Assembly: GCA_963758155.1 (NCBI GenBank)
Contig: CAVWUP010000018.1
Span: 173,026 to 237,025 of the forward strand
Length of the DNA: 64,000 nucleotides
Origin: an uncultured delta proteobacterium
GTDB taxonomy: Bacteria; Myxococcota_A; Polyangia; Fen-1088
Direction of reading: 5' to 3'
Part shown: positions 10,752 through 64,000 of the stretch, in pieces
How the letters are laid out: the number at the start of each line of letters is the position of its first letter
Numbering within the stretch: the first letter of the stretch is position 1
The notes under the pieces: generated by a model
The model's input: only the letters and a program-made list of their open reading frames with translations
The model's database searches: none
What the model was told of the DNA's origin: nothing
Position numbers and translations under genes: made by a program

Positions 10752-11692
10752 GAAGGCAGCCTTTCGGCGGCGCGCAGTTTCGCGGAACGGGCGCGTGGAT
10801 TGCGCGCGAGCTCGCCCTCCGACGCCGTGATCACGTGCTTCGTGAGAATCCGAAAGCGGGGAGCGTCGGGCGCGTCAGTGTCCCCTGATGCCAGGGCTCG
10901 GAACCTGCGCTTGACCATGCGGTCTTCCAGCGAGTGGAAGGCGATGACCACCAATCGGCCGCCGGGTCGTAGACAGCCAGGTGCCGCCTGCAGGAAGCGA
11001 TCCAACTCACCCAACTCATCGTTGACAGCAATTCGCAGGGCCTGAAAAACGCGCGTGGCTGGATCCTTGGTCGCCTCTCGCCGGGGAACCGAGCGGGCCA
11101 CCAAGCTGGAAAGGGCCGAGGTGGTGTCGAGGCCGCCACTTTCGCGCGCGCGGGCTATCTCGCGGGCGATCCTGCGCGCGAAGCGTTCTTCTCCGAGGTC
11201 ATGCAGGAGGCGCGCCAGCTCTTCCTCGTCCACGCGTTGTAGTAGGTCAGCCGCTGTCTCCGTTTGCGACCGGTCCATGCGCATGTCCAGCGGGCCGGAT
11301 CTGCGAAACGAAAAACCCCGGTCAGGCTGATCGAGCTGCACCGAGGAGACGCCAAGATCCGCGATACATCCGTCAAGCGGAAGAGCGTCGGCCTGTTCCA
11401 GCACGGAGCGAATTTGCGAAAAGGGAGCGTGGACCAGTCGGACCCGGTCCTCATGAGATGCTAGGTTGTCTTTCGCCAGCGCGAGCACTTCGGCGTCCCG
11501 GTCGATGCCGACAACTCGACCGTGGGGAGCAGACCGGTCGAGGATCGCGCGCATGTGCCCACCAAGCCCAACCGTGGCGTCGCAGTAGCAGCCCGAGTCC
11601 CTCGGACACAGGAAGCTCATCGCCTCTTCAACGAGGACTGGAAGGTGCGGAGCGTCAGCGGAGCTTTGGATCATTGGCACCGGTGGACTCAT
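10748..11692 (-). CDS. rsmH: RsmH (MraW), 16S rRNA m4C1402 methyltransferase
   Basis: 314 aa with YCDATVGLGGH SAM-binding motif. It is the first gene of the dcw cluster here. Confidence 0.85.
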   Translation of the reverse strand: MSPPVPMIQSSADAPHLPVLVEEAMSFLCPRDSGCYCDATVGLGGHMRAILDRSAPHGRVVGIDRDAEVLALAKDNLASHEDRVRLVHAPFSQIRSVLEQADALPLDGCIADLGVSSVQLDQPDRGFSFRRSGPLDMRMDRSQTETAADLLQRVDEEELARLLHDLGEERFARRIAREIARARESGGLDTTSALSSLVARSVPRREATKDPATRVFQALRIAVNDELGELDRFLQAAPGCLRPGGRLVVIAFHSLEDRMVKRRFRALASGDTDAPDAPRFRILTKHVITASEGELARNPRARSAKLRAAERLPS

Positions 11693-12052
11693 CGCGTCTC
11701 AATGCGCGGTGCAGAAGGCGCAATGACTAGTCGATTTGGCGGAATACCAAGGAGAGTCGATGGGTTGATTGATGGACGATACAGACGCGTCCAATGATCC
11801 CGCCCGAGTCATCCGTGTCAAGTTTTGAGACCAAGATTTCCCTAATAATTGCGCAGAGATTGCTTAGTCGATAGGGGATTGTCCAAGCCGCCAGCCCGAA
11901 TCGGATCTGACTATTTTCTTTCTTCTGCTGAGTATGCTGGATCACAGCAAGTTGTTTGGGAAAATCCTCTAACCATGCTTGACTAAAGGACTCTTTTGCG
12001 CGATAACGCGGATTCAAGGCAGGGCACGAGCCAGGAGAAGGAGCGGTTGCCA
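11693..12052. promoter_or_regulatory. AT-rich (~50% GC) divergent intergenic region upstream of the dcw cluster, occupying the position where mraZ is expected
   Basis: 360 bp of conspicuously low GC between the rsmH start and the Fic-like gene start. No MraZ-like ORF in any frame. Likely holds the dcw promoter(s). Confidence 0.4.
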
Positions 12053-12820
12053 ATGGAAGCTAGGTTGTTCGAGCTGGACGCCAAGATGGATTCACTCCGC
12101 GCGAAGGTCGGAGCGTTTCCGGATCGTTTGAAGAAGGACTACGAGAGCAAGCTCGATGTCTCATGGATCTTCCACGACAACGCCTTGGAAGGGGTCGTGC
12201 TTTCCTATTCGGAGCTGAAGGCCGCCATCGACCAGCGGATCATCAGCGACGTATCCCTCATCCCGATGTACGAAGAGGTGAAGAACCACAAGCTGGCGGT
12301 CGACTTCATCCGCGAAACCGCGCTGTCAAAGAAGGCCCCCGCCGTAGACCTGGACTTCATCCGCAAGCTCTACGCCATGGTCACGCCAGACGCGGTTCCC
12401 AAAGGGTGTCCCTATCGCAAGGAGAACCCGCTCCACCGCCTCTACTACCATGAGATCGTTCCGCCCGAGAAGATCGGGTACAAGATGCGCAAGCTGGCGG
12501 AATGGTTGGAAACGGATGAGTTCACACGCATGCACGCTGTCGTGCAATGCGTAAAACTTCAATTCCGCTTGCTCCAGGCGTACCCGTGGACTCGCAATTC
12601 GGGCAAGGTGGCGCGTCTGCTGACCAACTACATCCTTCTGCGGAGTGGATATGTGCCTGCCGTGGTCCACTCCATTGATCGGCAGCGCTATTACGAGGTT
12701 CTGCGCCATGAGAACGATGGCCTCATGACCCTGATCGTGGAGTCGCTGGAAAACAGCATCGACACCACGGCTAGGTTCTTCGACGAGCTTTCCGGCCTGC
12801 GCGTCCGCTGCGCGAGCTAG
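12053..12820 (+). CDS. Fic/Fido-fold protein with degenerate active-site motif
   Basis: Fic-like N-terminal IFHDNALEGVVLSYSELKAAI region. The HPFx[DE]GNGRxxR motif is replaced by YPWTRNSGKVAR, so the catalytic His is lost. ATG at 12053 has a GGAG Shine-Dalgarno. The ORF track starts further upstream at 11996. Confidence 0.55.
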   Translation: MEARLFELDAKMDSLRAKVGAFPDRLKKDYESKLDVSWIFHDNALEGVVLSYSELKAAIDQRIISDVSLIPMYEEVKNHKLAVDFIRETALSKKAPAVDLDFIRKLYAMVTPDAVPKGCPYRKENPLHRLYYHEIVPPEKIGYKMRKLAEWLETDEFTRMHAVVQCVKLQFRLLQAYPWTRNSGKVARLLTNYILLRSGYVPAVVHSIDRQRYYEVLRHENDGLMTLIVESLENSIDTTARFFDELSGLRVRCAS

Positions 12821-12893
12821 TGCCTCCGGTCCGTTTCGGCCCGGGATTCGTCCTTCCTCTTTGCCGGGCAGGGCGCTATAAGCCCGCTCACCC

Positions 12894-13604
12894 ATGAAGA
12901 CCAGCAAGGGCAACGATGCTCTCAAGCAGTTGGCGGGTTGCGCTGCCGCAAAATTCGTTGCCGACGGGATGGTGTGCGGGATGGGCACCGGTTCGACGGC
13001 CCGTTTTTTCATCGAAGAGGTCGGCCGCAGGATGAGGGAAGAGGGACTTCGCATCGCCGGAGTTCCCACATCCTTCCAGACGCGCCAACTGTGCCAACAA
13101 CACGGCATTCCCCTGCGCGATGCTCAGGATTGCCGGGCGATCGACCTGGCAGTCGACGGCGCAGACGAGGTCGATCCGGATCTCAACGTCACCAAGGGCG
13201 GCGGGGCGGCCCACACCATGGAGAAGCTGGTGGCCAGTATGGCCAGCCAGTTCGTGGTCATCGTGGACGAGAGCAAGCTGGTTCCCCGCCTGGGCTCCAT
13301 CGCCGACATCCCCATCGAAGTCACCGTTCCGGCCATTGGCTACGTGACCGATGTGGTGACACGTCTGGGCGGCCAGCCCCGGCTGCGCATGGGCATCAAC
13401 AAGGATGGCCCGCTGGTGACCGACAATGGCCAGCTTGTCATCGACGTGAAGTTCGGCCCCGAGATCGACTTGCGCGAGGTCGATGCGCGACTGCACCGCA
13501 CACCTGGTGTCGTCGAAACTGGGCTGTTCTTCGATATGGCCACCAAGGTTCTGGTTGGCATCTCCGACGGCATGAGCGTCCTGACCCTGGAACGCAAGAC
13601 CTGA
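12894..13604 (+). CDS. rpiA: Ribose-5-phosphate isomerase A
   Basis: 236 aa with GMGTGSTA and DGADEVD motifs and KGGGAAHTMEK, all characteristic of RpiA. Confidence 0.85.
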   Translation: MKTSKGNDALKQLAGCAAAKFVADGMVCGMGTGSTARFFIEEVGRRMREEGLRIAGVPTSFQTRQLCQQHGIPLRDAQDCRAIDLAVDGADEVDPDLNVTKGGGAAHTMEKLVASMASQFVVIVDESKLVPRLGSIADIPIEVTVPAIGYVTDVVTRLGGQPRLRMGINKDGPLVTDNGQLVIDVKFGPEIDLREVDARLHRTPGVVETGLFFDMATKVLVGISDGMSVLTLERKT

Positions 13605-55018: not shown

Positions 55019-56566
55019 TCAGCGGCCGCCAAGCTGACTGATCCTTTTTTCGATGAGCGCGCGGTCGGGCGCGCTCGGCGAGGCCTTGAGATATAGTTTG
55101 AAATGGCGCACGGCCTGCGCGGCATTGCCAGACTGGGCGTAGGCCATGCCCAGGCCGCGCTGGCTCTGGGGATCCTTGGGATTCAGCTTCAACGACTCTG
55201 AGAAGGCCGCGATGGCTTCGGGCAGAGCGCCGTTGAGGAGCCTGGCATTCCCCCGCTGGTAAGCCTCGGCCGCCTCCTGCGTCTTGTCGGTGGCAGGCTT
55301 GGCCACCGGCGGGGCCGCTTCCGCTTGCTTCTTCTCGGGCGGCGGTGCAGCCGGCTCGCTCGGGGCTGCCACCTTTTCGGCGACGGGTTTCTCGACGACT
55401 GGCTTGGGGGAAGCCACAGGCTTGGGAGAAACACGACGTTCAGCCAAAGCCGGCTTCTCGGCCGCGACCTTCTTTTCCACAGGCCGTGGCTTTTCCACCG
55501 CCGGCCTCGGCGTGACGGCCGCTTTTTCTGACGGAGCTGGCTTCTCAACCGGCGCCGCGACTTTCTCGACCGCGGCTGGCTTGCTCGCCGCCGGCGCCGC
55601 GGCCTTTTCGGCCACCGCCGGCTGAGGCTTGGCTGGTTCAACGGCTGCCGCGGGGGCTGGAAGGGCTGGTTTCTCGACGGTCAAAGGCGGCGTGGGCACC
55701 GCCGCCTTCTCAGCAGCCTTGACCGGCGCTGGCTTCTGCTCCGAACCGGACTGCTTCTTGCCCCCCAATACGACCACGCCCAACACTGCGAGCGCCACGA
55801 CGCCAACTCCGCCGGCGACAAAGAAATACTTGTGCTGGCCGCCTTTCAGGCGCGCCGCTGTTCCCATCGAAGGAGCGGAACCCGCCCATTCAGGGACCGC
55901 CTCGGACTCGCTCTCGGCTCCATTCCGCCCCTTGTCGTCGGCTGGCACCGGGGACGGCGCATCTTCAGGCGTGGACCCCGCACCTGCGTCCGCGGCTGTC
56001 GCAGCAGCCGCAGAATCGGCGGCTGCTGTGACACCACCTGCCGGAGCCGCTCTGCTCTCAGACGAGATGTCCACATCCACTGCAGCCGGCCCCCTCGCAT
56101 CGGCTGTGGGCCTTACCTCCACGCGCGCAGACGGGCCCTCTGCGTCGGGAGGGGGCGGAACCATGGTTGGAGCGACCGCGAAGTCCGCGGTCTCGACTCG
56201 ACGCTTGGCCGCCGCTGCCGCAGCGACCGCAGAATAGGCTGCGGGCTTGGCATCGCCGCGAGCATAGCCTGGCGGCGATGCGGCCGCTCCCGGCGAAACG
56301 GGCTTGTCAGCGGCTGGGGTGCCCAGCCGGGTGGTCGCAGCCGCTGCCGGAGCGCTGGACTTAACCCCGACCCCAGCCGGGAAACCGCCGGTCCACATGA
56401 GCGTCTTGGCGGGCGAGGCCAGCTTGCCCGCACTCGAGCCGCCAACGGCCGGGCCTGCCGTGACAATCGCCTTGCCACAGGCTGGGCAAAGAATGACCGG
56501 CTGTATCGCTCCCGACCTGGCAGCCGGCAGTGGAGCATGACAATAGGGGCAGTTCGATGGCGTCAT
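55019..56566 (-). CDS. Zinc-ribbon / TM / Ala-Pro-rich / C-terminal TPR protein
   Basis: From MTPSNCPYCHAPL...CPACGK (CxxC...CxxC), a TM helix, a long AEKAAAP-type repeat region, then TPR (AIAAFSESLKLNPKD...). The ATG overlaps the upstream stop (ATGA). The ORF-track N-terminal extension is rejected. Confidence 0.5.
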   Translation of the reverse strand: MTPSNCPYCHAPLPAARSGAIQPVILCPACGKAIVTAGPAVGGSSAGKLASPAKTLMWTGGFPAGVGVKSSAPAAAATTRLGTPAADKPVSPGAAASPPGYARGDAKPAAYSAVAAAAAAKRRVETADFAVAPTMVPPPPDAEGPSARVEVRPTADARGPAAVDVDISSESRAAPAGGVTAAADSAAAATAADAGAGSTPEDAPSPVPADDKGRNGAESESEAVPEWAGSAPSMGTAARLKGGQHKYFFVAGGVGVVALAVLGVVVLGGKKQSGSEQKPAPVKAAEKAAVPTPPLTVEKPALPAPAAAVEPAKPQPAVAEKAAAPAASKPAAVEKVAAPVEKPAPSEKAAVTPRPAVEKPRPVEKKVAAEKPALAERRVSPKPVASPKPVVEKPVAEKVAAPSEPAAPPPEKKQAEAAPPVAKPATDKTQEAAEAYQRGNARLLNGALPEAIAAFSESLKLNPKDPQSQRGLGMAYAQSGNAAQAVRHFKLYLKASPSAPDRALIEKRISQLGGR

Positions 56567-57297
56567 TTTGCGGGTGCAGCGGGTAGGGGTGGAGGAGGCG
56601 GGACTGGCTGCGCTGGTGCGGAGGAAGGTGGCGGTAGCGGGGCTGGTGCCGGCGGCGGTGCCGGAGCCGGTGTCGGCGCGGGCGGCGGCGGTGCAGGCGG
56701 CGCTGGTGCCGGCGCGGGCGGCGGTGATGACGATAGTGGCGGCGCGGTGGGCCCGCCGTCGGAGAGAGCCCTTGCGACCAGCTTGTCGAGCGAGTCGTCG
56801 ACCACGTCGCTCTTGAGGACTTCCTCGGCGCGACTGATCAGCGCGCCCTTCTCGGCATCGAAGAGCAAGATGACGATCTTGACCGGCGCCTTCTTCTTGG
56901 CCTTGCCCACGCGTTCCATCTCGGCCCACAGCAGACGATCGGCACCCAGCAACTTGGCCACCTTCACGTAGCATTCGTCATTGGCCTGGACACACTCGGC
57001 CTGCCCCTGCGCCGTTTCCATGCTGATCGCGGCGACCGTTCGTTCGTCCACACCCAGCACCTCGGCCCTGACCAGCTTCTCGTTGAGCGCGGTGGCAGCG
57101 TTGGGCAACAAGAACCTTTCCGCCGGCAACAGGACCAGCTTCACCTTCTTGGGTGGCGGTGGCGGCGGCGGTGGCGGCGGCGGCGGAACGTAGCGAACCG
57201 GCGCCTCGCGCGGGCTTCGACGGGGAACGCAGCCGACGAGCGTGGTCAGAACCAGTCCGGTCACCAGGAAGATCTTGACTGTTGAGTTCACGGTCAT
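56563..57297 (-). CDS. Lipoprotein with poly-proline segments
   Basis: From MTVNSTVKIFLVTGLVLTTLVGC (lipobox), with a P12 run and a C-terminal PAPAPP-rich tail. Shine-Dalgarno GGAG. Confidence 0.5.
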   Translation of the reverse strand: MTVNSTVKIFLVTGLVLTTLVGCVPRRSPREAPVRYVPPPPPPPPPPPPKKVKLVLLPAERFLLPNAATALNEKLVRAEVLGVDERTVAAISMETAQGQAECVQANDECYVKVAKLLGADRLLWAEMERVGKAKKKAPVKIVILLFDAEKGALISRAEEVLKSDVVDDSLDKLVARALSDGGPTAPPLSSSPPPAPAPAPPAPPPPAPTPAPAPPPAPAPLPPPSSAPAQPVPPPPPLPAAPAK

Positions 57298-59395: not shown

Positions 59396-61012
59396 ATGCG
59401 CGAGTGCCGATATCTGACAATAGGTGTGGCTTTGTCATTCGCCGCTCTTGCGTGCGCCCGGACGCCGATGGAGCGACAACGGGCGGGCACGACGAACGGA
59501 GGCACGGGTGGCGGCGACACGACTGTCGCCAGCGGCGGTGCTACTAGCGCCCCGATAGGCACAACCAGCTATTCCGGTGGCGTGACCAGCTATCCCGGTG
59601 GCGTGACCGGCCCCACGGGAGGGGCGACCACCAATGCCGGTGAAACTGCGCCACCAGGAGGAACAACAGCGAGCGGCGGGACTACCAGTGCCGGTGGGAC
59701 TGCGCCGCCAGGGGGAACAACAGCGAGCGGCGGAGCCACCAGTGCTGGTGGAACTGCGACAGCAGGCGGAACAATAGCGAGCGGCGGAAGCACCAATGCC
59801 GGTGGAACTGCGACAGCGGGGAGAACAACAGCGAGCGGCGGAAGCACCAATGCCGGTGGAACTGCGACAGCGGGGAGAACAACAGCGAGCGACGGAACCA
59901 CAAATGCGGGTGGGACTGCAACAGCAGGGAGAACCACAGCGAGCGGCGGAACCACCAATGCGGGTGGCACTGCGACAGCAGGGAGAACCACAGCGAGCGG
60001 CGGAACCGCCAGTGCCGGTGGAACTGCGACGGCAGGGAGAACCACAGCGAGCGGCGGAACCACCAGTGCCGGTGGAATTGCGACAGCGGGAGGAACAACA
60101 GCGATCGGCGGCACTTCGCTGTACGGAGGAACGCCACCAAGTTGTAGTGGCCTGGCCGCGACCTGTGGGCCGTTGAACGAGACCTGCTGCACCAGCTTTC
60201 TGGTCCCTGGCGGAACATTCTATCGGAGTTACGACGGCGTGGACAACACGGATATGAGCTACCCGGCGACGGTGAGTGACTTCTACCTCGACAAGTACGA
60301 GATCACGGTGGGCCGGTTCCGGCAGTTCGTCAACGCGGGAATGGGCACGCAGGCCAACCCGCCTGCCGCTGGCGCCGGTGCCAATCCGTTGATCCCGGGC
60401 TCGGGCTGGGACTCGGCGTGGAACGAGTGGCTCGCGACGGACGCGGCCAGCCTGACAGCCAACATAAAGTGCCCTAGCGTCAATGGTCAGAATCACACCT
60501 GGACCGACGCGGCAGGGAGTAACGAGAGTAAGGCAATGAATTGCATCGAATGGCACACGGCATTCGCGTTCTGCGCGTGGGACGGCGGACGGCTGCCGAC
60601 CGAGGCTGAATGGAACTACGCGGCCTCCGGGGGAAGCGAGCAGCGGTACTATCCGTGGTCGAGCCCGCCAACCTCGACAACAATCGACGACAGTTACGCT
60701 GTGTACTGCGGCGGCACATGCAGCATACAGAATGTGGGCTCAAAGTCTCCGAAAGGCGACGGGAAGTGGGGCCAGGCCGACCTTGGCGGGAACCTATCTG
60801 AATGGACACTGGACTACCTAGACCCATACCAAACTCCATGTGATAACTGCGCCGATCTGAACAACGTCGTCATGTGGGATATCCCCTCCAGCCGGGAGAT
60901 CCGTGGCGGCGACTTCCCCGACGGCGCCAAGGGGCTCCAGTCGGCCTTTCGCGACTTCGGCTCCCCGGGGCCTGACACCATCGGGGCACGTTGTGCCAGA
61001 ACCAGTTTGTAG
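59396..61012 (+). CDS. Lipoprotein with Gly/Thr/Ala tandem repeats and C-terminal FGE-sulfatase (SUMF1) domain
   Basis: Signal MRECRYLTIGVALSFAALAC, about 8.7 copies of an 18-aa repeat (TATAGRTTASGGTTNAGG), then an FGE domain (RLPTEAEWNYAA, GNLSEWT, RGG). ATG at 59396 has an AGGTG Shine-Dalgarno. Confidence 0.65.
   Translation: MRECRYLTIGVALSFAALACARTPMERQRAGTTNGGTGGGDTTVASGGATSAPIGTTSYSGGVTSYPGGVTGPTGGATTNAGETAPPGGTTASGGTTSAGGTAPPGGTTASGGATSAGGTATAGGTIASGGSTNAGGTATAGRTTASGGSTNAGGTATAGRTTASDGTTNAGGTATAGRTTASGGTTNAGGTATAGRTTASGGTASAGGTATAGRTTASGGTTSAGGIATAGGTTAIGGTSLYGGTPPSCSGLAATCGPLNETCCTSFLVPGGTFYRSYDGVDNTDMSYPATVSDFYLDKYEITVGRFRQFVNAGMGTQANPPAAGAGANPLIPGSGWDSAWNEWLATDAASLTANIKCPSVNGQNHTWTDAAGSNESKAMNCIEWHTAFAFCAWDGGRLPTEAEWNYAASGGSEQRYYPWSSPPTSTTIDDSYAVYCGGTCSIQNVGSKSPKGDGKWGQADLGGNLSEWTLDYLDPYQTPCDNCADLNNVVMWDIPSSREIRGGDFPDGAKGLQSAFRDFGSPGPDTIGARCARTSL
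59640..60115. repeat. 54-bp tandem coding repeat, ~8.7 copies
   Basis: Near-identical 54-nt units encoding TA(T/P)AG(R/G)TTASGG(T/S)T(N/S)AGG. Confidence 0.8.
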
Positions 61013-61116: not shown

Positions 61117-61683
61117 ATGCGGCGCGCTCTCTACTCTCTATTCTTCCTCGGCGTCCTGGCCTGCTGCCTGCTGCTCTATTGGCGGGGCGGAAGACAGGAA
61201 CCAAGTCAATCCGGCGGAGCGCTCATCGCAGGCGAGGTGGCCGCCGTTTCGCTGCCGCCGCCTCGCCTGGCCCCTGCGGTCCCAAGTCGAGACGCAAACA
61301 ATGATGCCGGCTCCCTCGCTCTGGACGAAGACTCACTGATGCAGCAAATCCGTGACTCTTGGCCACGCAATCCCAAGCTAGCCGAAACGCTGGCGCGCGA
61401 AGGCAGGCAACGCTTTCCCGACAGCCCCCAAGCCGACGAGCGCGACGCGCTTCTGGTGATGGCGCTGCTGAGTCAGCGGAGGATGGACCGCGCTCGCCTC
61501 GAAGCCTACTACTATTTCGATCACCACGAGGACGGTCGTTTCGGCGAGAGGTTGACCTACTTGACACGTGTGTACCCACCGTCCCGCAGGATCAGAACCA
61601 TGCCCCGCCCAAGGAGATCCCCCGGAGTCAAAGGCAGGCGGCGTTGGCGCTTCAATCACCAACCTGACAGGCGTATGGAATAG
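61117..61683 (+). CDS. Hypothetical membrane-anchored protein
   Basis: N-terminal TM helix LYSLFFLGVLACCLLL. The C-terminal portion is Arg-rich and may be over-extended. Confidence 0.3.
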   Translation: MRRALYSLFFLGVLACCLLLYWRGGRQEPSQSGGALIAGEVAAVSLPPPRLAPAVPSRDANNDAGSLALDEDSLMQQIRDSWPRNPKLAETLAREGRQRFPDSPQADERDALLVMALLSQRRMDRARLEAYYYFDHHEDGRFGERLTYLTRVYPPSRRIRTMPRPRRSPGVKGRRRWRFNHQPDRRME

Positions 61684-62302
61684 TCTGGCCGGCCATGCAG
61701 GGCCAGCGATAGCTGGCCAGGTCGTCCACCACATCCGTCCGCGACTCGCCAAATTCCGTAACGTCGATGACCCGACCTTCGCTGTCGAAGACCACATTGC
61801 CCCAGCTCGGACCCCATGCCGGCTGCGCCCCAGGCGCGCACCCGCCAAATCCAGCCACGGACCTAGTAAGTTCCTCCCAGATCAGATAACCGTCGTCACA
61901 ATAATAATGATACGGTGTCTCGCCGTCAGTTAGTCCTCCGTCTTGATCGGAACTGGTGCTGCCTCCCTGGGATGTCACTCCTCCGGCGGCTGACGCAGTG
62001 CTGCCAACACCGCCACTCCCGCGCCAGGTGATGTCCCCACCCCCACCGGACATGTCACCACCGGCACCGGCTTGACCGCCGGTCTCCACGCCACCTCCCC
62101 CGTTGCCCCCGCTGGCCATAACGCCGCCAACCTCGACATTCCCACCTTCGCCGCTCGAACCAGCGGCGGCAGGTCCATCGCTGGCCGCATGCAGTGCGTG
62201 CCCCCCACAACCTCCCAACAGAGCCGCCACCACAACTAGGAAATGCCGTTGATAGGCCGGCGATGGGGCCGTCTGCACAGTCTTTCGATTGACCACCTTC
62301 AT
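61652..62302 (-). CDS. Glycine-rich lipoprotein with small Cys-containing C-terminal domain
   Basis: Lipobox LLGGC, then G/S/A low complexity, then YYCDDGY...GGC...PCMAG...YAC. Confidence 0.45.
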   Translation of the reverse strand: MKVVNRKTVQTAPSPAYQRHFLVVVAALLGGCGGHALHAASDGPAAAGSSGEGGNVEVGGVMASGGNGGGGVETGGQAGAGGDMSGGGGDITWRGSGGVGSTASAAGGVTSQGGSTSSDQDGGLTDGETPYHYYCDDGYLIWEELTRSVAGFGGCAPGAQPAWGPSWGNVVFDSEGRVIDVTEFGESRTDVVDDLASYRWPCMAGQTIPYACQVGD

Positions 62303-62597
62303 GCTCCTTCGGCCAGGCGGAGTGCGACATGGCCGTCAATGTGCTGAAGCCGATGGGCGCCAGAATCGGCGCCAACGCCCGCGTCGTATAAGTATGCCAC
62401 ATTTCGGCCTGCTGAACTCACGGTGAGTTTTCACCGACTGTCGCCTGCTCTTGGCCCGGCCATTGGGGAGTCGGCTCAGCCTGATGGACCGTCCGTCTTA
62501 CCCAATGGCGACAGCCGCTGGCTATGGCATCTCCTGATGGTCCCGAGCACCGCAGAAGCATCTGCATGGCGCCAGATCCAATAGCCACCTGGTCGAA

Positions 62598-64000
62598 TTA
62601 GTGGTCTGCATACCACTGCATGACGTCACTCAGCAACTTGTCGGGCGCGCGCATGGGAACAGTGTGCCCGGAGAGGTAGCCCGTCGGCATGGTAACTTTG
62701 GCCGTAATTCCGTTGGACGTGTAATTGACCTGCATCAAGCCGGGATTGGACAGTGGGCCATTAGGGTTGTTGCTGGCCGTCTGGTTGTAAGTAACGCTCG
62801 ACACAAGATTCTCGATACTCTGCACCGCGTAGGGATTAGGCAGAGTGGGATGATTGGGATCCATGGGACTCGCAAGGTTGTTGAGTGCCTCGGGAATTGA
62901 CGGCGACCAAACTACCTGGTCTTCCTCCGCAACGGTGATGAAGGTGGCCACGTTGTTGTAGAGGTTGGCCAGGAAGGCGTAGGCGACCGTGGCCCCGAGA
63001 GCGTACCCGTCACTTTTTGTGGGGTCCAGGTCATCCCATTTCGAGGCTCCTGGATAGCCAGCGGCCACGGTGGGATTCCATGAAACGAAATAGCAATCGT
63101 CCGGCGCCAGGGGCGTCAGAGAATTGAAAGTACTCTTCATACTTGATGTGCTCAAAGCAAATTGCTGTGAGTCCGGTTCGGTGGAATCACCGCACTCGCT
63201 ACCGAGGCGTCCATAGGCAAGTTGGCGATACGTGGAATGCATCCAGAGGATCGTCGTCGGATCGACTCCCAGTGCCACGGTCAGGTTCGCCACATTGTTG
63301 AGCCGAACAGCAGCCGCATCCTCCTGATCTTCTGCCCAATTCACTGGCTTGTCGGCGTTGTACCCGTCGCAAGTTAACATTCCACACGCATAGGCGCAGT
63401 TGGACGGGTGGTTCGGGTCGCACGGCGGCGCAAGCTGGCACGGAAGGGTTGGGGCGTTGGTCGCACATTTCGGTAGGCCGTGGTACTGTTGATCGTTGTG
63501 CATGAAATCATTCTGACGGTTGCCCGCCACGGTGGGCTCAATCATGATTTGATGATTGAATCTCGAAGGTATACACAGATCCAAATACGGAGCCTGCCCC
63601 GGGCAGGCCAAGGAGAGGTAGGAAGTCAGGTCCTGGTACAACTGCGGATCGTAATAGGAGGAGCCGGCCGTATTGAGAGATAGATACCCGTAAAGGTAGT
63701 ACAACATCAGTGTGGCCCGCGCGCCACTGTAGCTCTCCGGGACCAGGATGACCTGATTGTCCAACAAGGCAGGGTGGCGCATAAGAAAGCGGGCGAGGAT
63801 CTGAAGGAAGATCCCTGCGTCGCGAGAGACGTCGTTGCCAATCGACGGCTGCTGAAGAGTGCCCGTAGAATCATGGTAGCCCAGCGGATAGGAAAAGCCC
63901 GTAGCCGGCGCGTCGATGTAGAGCAGATTGGCAAACTGAGTCCAGTTGTTGGGGTTGACCGCGATGCCAGTAGCCGTCGTGTTTGGATTGTTTGGATCGA
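62598..64000 (-). CDS. Peptidase S10 (serine carboxypeptidase) family protein, N-terminus beyond window
   Basis: The reading frame stays open upstream of the track ORF (62598-63782) to the window edge. The upstream translation FANLLYIDAPATGFSY and, in the track ORF, LVPESYSG match the S10 oxyanion-region and catalytic Ser (GESYAG) blocks. The segment GC is visibly lower than the rest of the window. Confidence 0.55.
   Translation of the reverse strand, partial: DPNNPNTTATGIAVNPNNWTQFANLLYIDAPATGFSYPLGYHDSTGTLQQPSIGNDVSRDAGIFLQILARFLMRHPALLDNQVILVPESYSGARATLMLYYLYGYLSLNTAGSSYYDPQLYQDLTSYLSLACPGQAPYLDLCIPSRFNHQIMIEPTVAGNRQNDFMHNDQQYHGLPKCATNAPTLPCQLAPPCDPNHPSNCAYACGMLTCDGYNADKPVNWAEDQEDAAAVRLNNVANLTVALGVDPTTILWMHSTYRQLAYGRLGSECGDSTEPDSQQFALSTSSMKSTFNSLTPLAPDDCYFVSWNPTVAAGYPGASKWDDLDPTKSDGYALGATVAYAFLANLYNNVATFITVAEEDQVVWSPSIPEALNNLASPMDPNHPTLPNPYAVQSIENLVSSVTYNQTASNNPNGPLSNPGLMQVNYTSNGITAKVTMPTGYLSGHTVPMRAPDKLLSDVMQWYADH

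Follow-up and report, generated by a model that had tools for sequence, protein, structure and literature searches.

A low-GC segment of an uncultured myxobacterium holds part of a divergent S10-type hydrolase gene that is probably typical of its lineage

Introduction

Does a fall in guanine-plus-cytosine (GC) content that coincides with a gene for a serine carboxypeptidase of family S10 mark DNA of foreign origin in a bacterial genome? The question is raised by a stretch of 64,000 nucleotides (hereafter the window) from an uncultured delta proteobacterium of the Polyangia (assembly GCA_963758155.1, contig CAVWUP010000018.1). Its last segment, 62303-64000, is comparatively poor in GC and holds a minus-strand open reading frame (ORF) that runs past the window end. 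An earlier reading made from the letters alone (hereafter the sequence-only reading) had described this ORF as a eukaryote-like S10 serine carboxypeptidase and a candidate for horizontal acquisition. The characterised S10 members named in a review are all eukaryotic (PMC11878206), and our literature search returned nothing specific on bacterial S10 proteins or on the fusion described below. Here we report that the gene in question has about 950 codons, of which the window holds the C-terminal half, and reaches to about 65446, past the window end. We hold with good confidence that the encoded protein is S10-like, that it combines an N-terminal domain of the choice-of-anchor-A (CAA) family with the S10 domain, and that it is a non-foreign, lineage-typical gene of Polyangia-type myxobacteria. 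The segment represents a new member of a divergent, uncharacterised bacterial branch of S10.

Results

The minus-strand ORF ends in a TAA stop codon at 62598-62600 and contains no stop over the 466 codons read in frame from 63998. Both peptides quoted in the sequence-only reading were located in it, and the frame is open at position 64000, as had been claimed (Table 1). The exact product is on record as P0001 (469 aa), from a 280,710-bp NCBI/ENA contig. A Pfam scan of the window part gave PF00450 (Peptidase_S10) at 42.7 bits against a cut-off of 21.9, the match being confined to residues 9-93 of the ORF and positions 72-148 of the 420 in the profile, while NCBIfam gave no match for the ORF. 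The block ANLLYIDAPATGFSY lines up with NVLYIESPAGVGFSY of cathepsin A. It had been read as the oxyanion block; it is indeed a conserved S10 block, but the oxyanion-hole motif NGGPG lies outside the window, at about 64050-64064. In carboxypeptidase Y (CPY), the oxyanion hole consists of the NGGPG Gly together with the Tyr that follows the catalytic Ser, and the ANLLYIDAP block has no part in it.

Table 1. Coordinates of the S10-like gene, its predicted catalytic features and the adjoining elements within the window
Feature	Position	Strand	Description
3' part of CAA-S10 gene	62598..64000	minus	466 codons plus stop; ORF/translation, Pfam PF00450
Conserved S10 block ANLLYIDAPATGFSY	63888-63932	minus	N, L, Y, D, A, P, G and Y invariant in family
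Nucleophile elbow LVPESYSG	63723-63746	minus	Aligns to GESYAG of Kex1 and cathepsin A
Predicted catalytic Ser (residue 89)	codon 63732-63734	minus	Ser invariant in 33 family members
Predicted catalytic Asp (residue 360), in FITVAEEDQVV	62919..62921	minus	Family-invariant, after predicted beta-strand
Predicted catalytic His (residue 445), in LSGHTVPMRAP	62664..62666	minus	Family-invariant G-H
Recombination breakpoint inside ORF	63429..63528	no strand	Sliding DNA identity against L083, block-wise protein identity
Intergenic spacer, S10-like gene to lipoprotein gene	62303..62597	no strand	295 nt, GC 0.617
Gly-rich lipoprotein	61652..62302	minus	Lipobox, Gly-rich linker, conserved C-terminal domain of about 85 aa with 4 Cys
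188-aa protein	61117..61683	plus	N-terminal hydrophobic segment; homology over residues 1 to about 153
FGE-sulfatase-domain lipoprotein	59396..61012	plus	Pfam PF03781, 3e-32

In an alignment of 33 family members, three residues never vary (Ser in xESYxG, Asp in ITxAxxD, His in GHxV), and NGGPG hardly does. Comparison of the single sequence with solved structures reached eukaryotic S10 enzymes at expectation values (E) of only about 0.03-0.13. The family profile matched PDB S10 chains with E down to 5e-15 across the region from NGGPG to GESYGG, these chains being cathepsin A, CPDW-II, Kex1, CPY and Sorghum hydroxynitrile lyase (1gxs). In the profile alignment NGGPG falls on NGGPGCSS of cathepsin A, the family Asn (FNTAP) stands opposite a Glu of cathepsin A (-EHGP), and the His block SGHTVPMRAP aligns weakly, as a second profile domain, to AGHMVP of the same enzyme. 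The part that the sequence-only reading gave to LVPESYSG as the catalytic motif agrees with the alignments, in which the elbow faces GESYAG and contains the family-invariant, presumptive nucleophile. Its Pro is shared with P0003 and P0004, and the change from Gly to Ser after the Tyr is peculiar to this copy; the strict PROSITE pattern for S10 would fail on PESYSG.

Structural comparison pointed the same way. An AlphaFold2 model of the full-length homologue P0002, which is 61-67% identical, had a mean predicted local distance difference test (pLDDT) score of 83, most of the S10 domain exceeding 90. In Foldseek, the 11 PDB chains that matched this model best were all S10 enzymes (E 5e-11 to 8e-9; target-normalised template-modelling score 0.46-0.61), generic alpha/beta hydrolases ranking after them, and its N-terminal domain matched ice-binding beta-helix proteins. 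The insertion between Ser and Asp is long, Cys-rich and the most variable region of the family, and it forms the low-confidence part of the model. Identity to eukaryotic S10 enzymes in the structural alignments was 11-14%. Together, the motifs and the modelled fold identify the domain as a genuine, very divergent S10-type alpha/beta hydrolase. The proposed S10 assignment is thus supported by Pfam, by the family profile, by the modelled fold of a homologue and by the invariant Ser, Asp and His. The qualifier eukaryote-like does not survive, given the low structural identity, the single-sequence E of about 0.03 and the confirmed relatives, which are bacterial.

The remainder of the gene was recovered from the Logan contig L001 (3,413 bp, reported from two runs), which shares sequence with the window and reaches 1,621 nt past its end; a position x in L001 corresponds to window position 62598+3024-x. 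As the sequence-only reading had anticipated for an extended window, the gene continues, and the extension brings in both NGGPG and the CAA domain. The S10 frame in L001 is open over 566 codons, NGGPG included, and scores 64.8 bits with Pfam S10, of whose 420 profile positions only about 18-150 are matched. Upstream, in another frame, lies an ORF that begins with the signal-peptide-like MRSLGSLFSSAVVLSTLLVPAVGMA and holds a CAA domain at L001 residues 126-376 (TIGR04215, 171.3 bits, cut-off 29; PF20597 pAdhesive_15, 150.1 bits, cut-off 23.8). In the full gene these matches have E of 3e-50 and 1e-43, and the domain lies upstream of the frameshift that separates the two frames, wholly outside the window. 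Intact relatives such as P0002 (804 aa) hold both domains in a single polypeptide. From about 65446 down to 62598, the predicted order from N- to C-terminus is a Sec signal peptide, a Cys-rich stretch, the CAA beta-helix, a CxxxDxxWSCS linker and the S10 domain. In databases, homologues are annotated as "hypothetical protein" or "choice-of-anchor A domain-containing protein".

The GC content of 62303-64000 is 0.572 against 0.650 in the rest of the window, a drop of 7.7 points, and the segment is the lowest 1.7-kb stretch of the window, 3.4 standard deviations under the sliding-window mean. Relative to the Gly-codon-rich gene just before it, the value falls from 0.66 to 0.555-0.57, or by about 9-10 points. 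The drop seen in the sequence-only reading is therefore real and is the minimum of the window, but its size, given there as well over 10 points, was overstated. Nor does the step begin at about 62.3 kb, as had been written: it tracks the ORF (0.563), the spacer from 62303 still being at 0.617. In L001 the GC content stays at about 0.58 right to the contig end.

We then asked how much of this drop the protein itself explains, by re-encoding it with the synonymous codon usage of the window (37 reference ORFs). The expected GC from amino-acid composition was 0.595 against a gene mean of 0.655, so that about 6 of the 9 points under the window's coding average, or about two thirds, reflect amino-acid composition. 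The protein is rich in Asn, Tyr, Ser and Thr and poor in Arg, Ala and Gly (Asn 8.4 vs 2.1%, Tyr 6.0 vs 1.9%, Arg 2.1 vs 8.2%). GC at third codon positions (GC3) was 0.689 against 0.778 expected, a deficit of -0.09 (z -2.0), and three neighbours with normal overall GC have GC3 deficits of -0.154, -0.114 and -0.07. The comparison of codon usage and GC3 that the sequence-only reading had suggested thus finds a synonymous composition that is not distinct from that of adjacent genes. Homologues lie under the GC of their own flanks in 19 of 19 Polyangia-type loci, by 0.3-9.8 points (median about 6.6), whereas Nannocystaceae and non-myxobacterial copies (25-33% identity) have no GC deficit against their flanks. 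These data show that the low GC is a matter of protein composition and a family-wide codon habit rather than a foreign-DNA signature, because the GC3 deficit is common to neighbours and homologues and the rest comes from the amino acids.

A second low-GC stretch was seen at about 11200-13000 (GC 0.579); it includes an ORF at 11987-12820 with GC 0.58 and a normal GC3 of 0.79.

The 36 homologues found in a word-indexed search are all from metagenomes or metagenome-assembled genomes (MAGs), and many are fusions of CAA and S10 domains. In a scan of 185,579 species-representative genomes, all 112 confirmed relatives are bacterial. The 20 closest of these genomic relatives (35-49% identity) are from Polyangiaceae/Myxococcales-type MAGs, which often hold 2-3 copies each; over MAGs and metagenomes together, the nearest relatives are 35-61% identical. 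Members at 25-33% identity come from Spirochaetota, Chromatiaceae, Sumerlaeota, Aminicenantes, Desulfobacterota, Bacteriovoracaceae, Nannocystis and the cultured Enhygromyxa salina DSM 15201 (L073). An exhaustive profile search over 1.84 billion cluster representatives (clusters at 50% identity) returned at least 488 proteins at E <= 1e-30 and 1,450 at E <= 1e-10. That S10 proteins are rare in bacteria, as the sequence-only reading had it, is fair by frequency, yet this clade alone holds at least 488 such clusters at the stricter threshold.

The genes beside the S10 gene are conserved with it. In six loci (L002, L003, L084, L007, L010 and L016) the S10 gene and its three downstream partners occur in the same order and orientation, and rearranged forms of the neighbourhood occur in L008, L012, L014, L018, L019 and L006. 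Searches with hidden Markov models found the lipoprotein and 188-aa partners in 12 Polyangia-type loci (L002-L019 and L084) and in none of L021-L081, which are mostly from other phyla. The CAA-S10 gene, the Gly-rich 4-Cys lipoprotein gene, the gene for the 188-aa protein and the FGE-sulfatase lipoprotein gene thus form a recurrent four-gene neighbourhood. Against isolate fen_1125 the partners are 65-72% identical and the S10 protein only 42-47%.

These comparisons bear directly on the horizontal acquisition that had been suspected: the closest homologues are from the same lineage, synteny is conserved and the GC deficit is family-wide. Orthologs in relatives had been named as an observation that would speak against acquisition, and Polyangia-type genomes do contain homologues with the same neighbours. 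As for marks of mobility, we found no tRNA anywhere in the 64-kb window and no repeats bracketing the low-GC segment on the window side, and none of the ten scanned ORFs of 46-59 kb or of the ORFs of 59-64 kb has a domain of an integrase or transposase. The integrase, tRNA or direct repeats that the sequence-only reading would have looked for are accordingly lacking on the visible side, the data ending at about 65.6 kb. Relatives, synteny, composition and mobility marks are four independent tests; the first three speak against a foreign origin, and on the visible side the fourth gave no sign of one.

The state of this copy is a separate matter. Compared with the intact metagenome relative L083, one T is absent from GGCGGC(T)GCC, in a Cys codon, at L001 1321/1322 (window about 64300). 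At window positions of about 64290-64310, GGCGGCTGCC is the intact form and GGCGGCGCC the form with the deletion. This 1-nt deletion, some 300 nt beyond the window end, leaves the assemblies with two overlapping ORFs in place of one CAA-S10 gene. We looked for decay or relaxed constraint in the S10 frame and saw none: its 566 codons are free of stops, and of the 83 positions whose conservation in the family reaches 90% or more it departs at 3, all conservatively (V to I, G to S, G to A), where intact family members depart at 0-7. The copy is thus either a very recent pseudogene or the product of a consensus error. Programmed -1 frameshifting at the site was considered and set aside as unlikely, since C-GGC-GGC-G does not have the form of a canonical slippery heptamer and the intact relative has a Cys codon there. 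In the metagenome contig of P0003 (L082, positions 1100-1900), a large internal deletion brings the start of the beta-helix up against the S10 domain at ...GGPGSATS, out of frame; this has the look of either a paralogue in decay or an assembly chimera.

The gene is also mosaic. Its DNA is 88-98% identical to that of L083 from window-equivalent 65021 to about 63529, and from about 63528 to the stop codon only 37-74% identical. This sharp change of identity indicates, from the aligned sequences, recombination within the family between the nucleophile region and the half that carries the cap, the Asp and the His. Together with the comparison to fen_1125, these data show that the S10 gene is mosaic and evolves faster than its neighbours. 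Among paralogues, those without the beta-helix (P0011, P0013, P0014, P0016, P0017, P0019, P0022-P0025 and P0027) carry a C-terminal extension of about 50 aa that ends, at the very C-terminus, in a conserved hydrophobic-[LMI]-G-P tail. This tail could be a sorting or processing signal.

Of the partner genes, the adjacent glycine-rich lipoprotein was correctly picked out in the sequence-only reading, the ORF carrying the lipobox LLGGC. Read by eye, the putative signal peptide up to the lipobox Cys is FLVVVAALLGGC, followed by GG, and this Cys-Gly-Gly is conserved in homologues (consensus 'CGG'). A search with the single sequence gave 1 match and a profile search 72 unnamed proteins. The C-terminal domain has the pattern C..LW..C..G.VV.D.EGRVID..WPCLAGQTI.Y.C, with four conserved Cys, and was modelled by AlphaFold2 with pLDDT 77-96; the protein has no Pfam or NCBIfam match, and no significant match was found among solved folds. 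In the spacer upstream of it (62303-62597) we saw no convincing promoter or terminator and no Rfam match. The 188-aa protein is 65-71% identical in L002 and L003, occurs in 9 related loci and has only a sub-threshold TPR_14 match in Pfam. The FGE-sulfatase lipoprotein is 70-72% identical to its counterparts in L002, L003 and L084. Within its gene, 8 tandem 54-nt units at 59573-60165, 70-100% identical to the reference copy, encode 18-aa repeats rich in Gly, Thr, Ala and Ser. Further away, irregular GGY-rich repeats of 12/18 nt occur at 56615-56727 and 57152-57186, a stretch covered by a large minus-strand ORF with TPR matches (55019-56977) and by overlapping candidate ORFs.

Discussion

The evidence reported here supports a view of the low-GC segment as the 3' part of a two-domain, S10-like gene that belongs to the lineage in which it is found. 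Given its predicted domains, a mechanism can be outlined. The protein would be exported through its Sec signal peptide, the CAA beta-helix may dock it on a polymer surface, and outside the cell the S10-like domain would act as a carboxypeptidase-like serine exopeptidase or a related acyl hydrolase. Cellulose binding by the Jonah lectins of Acanthamoeba, which have a CAA domain, is the only functional datum for this domain (PMC6541295). An extracellular hydrolase would fit the extracellular, degradative lifestyle of myxobacteria.

The alternative from which this work started is that a recent horizontal transfer brought in a foreign low-GC island with an S10 carboxypeptidase derived from a eukaryote. 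We consider this very improbable. It could draw on the segment having the lowest GC of the window, on its reduced GC3, on an upstream boundary that lies outside the DNA seen, on a mosaic gene that must hence be recombining, and on the eukaryotic origin of the characterised S10 enzymes (PMC11878206). Identity to those eukaryotic enzymes is nevertheless only 11-14%, the nearest relatives are all bacterial with the closest from the same lineage, and the flanking genes are syntenic in related genomes at 65-72% identity. The composition itself loses its force as a mark of transfer, since the GC deficit recurs in all 19 homologous loci, two thirds of the drop follow from the amino acids of the protein and neighbours of normal GC have a GC3 deficit too; no tRNA, repeats or integrase were found on the visible side. 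Recent acquisition is heavily disfavoured because synteny is conserved and paralogues are lineage-wide.

Two other alternatives concern what the gene does rather than where it came from. If the 1-nt deletion is real, the product would be a truncated secreted beta-helix with no exported S10 domain, and the part in the window would be the remnant of a young pseudogene. This outcome is compatible with a lineage-typical S10-like gene, and we regard it as less likely than not. Both the genes called in the NCBI/ENA record and the Logan contig from two runs show the deletion, the site lies outside any homopolymer and, from reading the sequence, is unlike a canonical slippery heptamer, and the internal deletion in L082 suggests that decay occurs in the family. 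On the other side, the S10 frame is otherwise undamaged, with no stops and only three conservative changes at conserved positions; moreover the two assemblies may not be independent, and the 280-kb contig suggests long-read data, where a consensus can carry single-base errors. The other alternative is chemical. Plant serine carboxypeptidase-like (SCPL) acyltransferases and the Sorghum hydroxynitrile lyase carry out non-peptidase reactions on the S10 fold, and the present domain might likewise catalyse acyl transfer or act as an esterase or lyase, perhaps on a substrate that is linked to a glycopolymer and that the beta-helix binds. We think this unlikely. It is favoured by the presence of the Sorghum enzyme (1gxs) among both sequence and fold matches, by the Asn in place of the carboxylate-binding Glu, by a cap region between Ser and Asp that is Cys-rich and the most variable of all, and by the cellulose binding of a CAA domain in an Acanthamoeba Jonah lectin (PMC6541295). 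It is opposed by the retention of Ser-Asp-His, of the Glu before the Ser and of NGGPG, by top fold matches that are all carboxypeptidases, and by the lack of any gene suggestive of a small-molecule pathway among the scanned window ORFs. True carboxypeptidase chemistry we judge to be about as likely as not.

Several points weigh against our assignment of a lineage-typical S10-like hydrolase and should be set beside it. Pfam detects only the N-terminal third of the S10 domain, and the nucleophile elbow reads PESYSG, not GESY[AG]G. The second carboxylate-binding Glu of eukaryotic S10 enzymes, Glu65 in CPY, has Asn as its equivalent here, and because of this alignment carboxypeptidase specificity is uncertain. 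The fold model is that of the homologue P0002, and the triad of the present protein is predicted. Our literature search found no enzymatic study of any member of the bacterial clade. As regards origin, a mobile element may lie beyond about 65.6 kb, past the data on the upstream side of the low-GC stretch. Taken as a whole, the four-gene neighbourhood has a lower GC3 than most window genes, so that the module may have been acquired at an earlier time or exchanged within the lineage. The source genome is absent from the GTDB representatives, and the taxonomy used here was taken from the best matches of its neighbours.

Taking the lineage-typical gene as the preferred reading, we can hypothesise a role for its neighbourhood. 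The four genes might form a Polyangia-specific extracellular system in which a surface-docked S10-like hydrolase diversifies quickly as cassette-like recombination changes its substrate-binding half (breakpoint about 63528) and the lipoprotein serves as anchor, chaperone or inhibitor. We offer this as speculation and think it improbable. If it were true, the rapid diversification could track variable prey or polymer substrates.

The immediate consequence of this work is the removal of a false lead, as the GC step is explained by protein composition and codon habit and not by foreign DNA. What emerges in its place is a sizeable S10-like clade, spread across many bacterial phyla, for which we found no biochemical study. 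In Polyangia-type myxobacteria the clade has expanded, fused to a putative polymer-binding beta-helix and placed beside conserved lipoprotein genes. Biochemistry on one bacterial member would widen knowledge of S10, because the characterised members in the review are all eukaryotic (PMC11878206). Nothing here challenges current understanding.

The nearest comparison is with Polyangiaceae/Myxococcales MAG proteins (P0002, P0004) and with L002 and L003 of isolate fen_1125, which share the family, the domain order, the neighbours and the GC deficit. From these Polyangia-type homologues the present copy differs in its 1-nt deletion, in the Ser after the elbow Tyr and in a divergent, mosaic 3' third. 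The protein of Enhygromyxa salina DSM 15201 is an uncharacterised member of the same family, and the Nannocystaceae and non-myxobacterial members at 25-33% identity are without both the conserved neighbours and the GC deficit. With the CAA domains of TIGR04215/PF20597 and the Acanthamoeba Jonah lectins, the likeness lies in the N-terminal domain with its ice-binding-like beta-helix; unlike in the lectins, that domain is here fused to a hydrolase. With the S10 enzymes CPY, Kex1, cathepsin A and wheat CPDW-II, the protein shares NGGPG, NLLYIDxPxGxGFSY, xESYxG and GHxVP in the same order, a predicted alpha/beta-hydrolase fold with the Ser-Asp-His order, and a Pfam score over the gathering cut-off. 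It is set apart from them by a bacterial source, predicted secretion, the N-terminal CAA beta-helix and an identity of 11-14%, by an elbow that departs at two positions from the family consensus GESYGG and also from the S10 form G-E-S-Y-[AG]-G, and by its Cys-rich variable insertion between Ser and Asp, its Asn at the position equivalent to Glu65 of CPY and a match to only part of the Pfam model.

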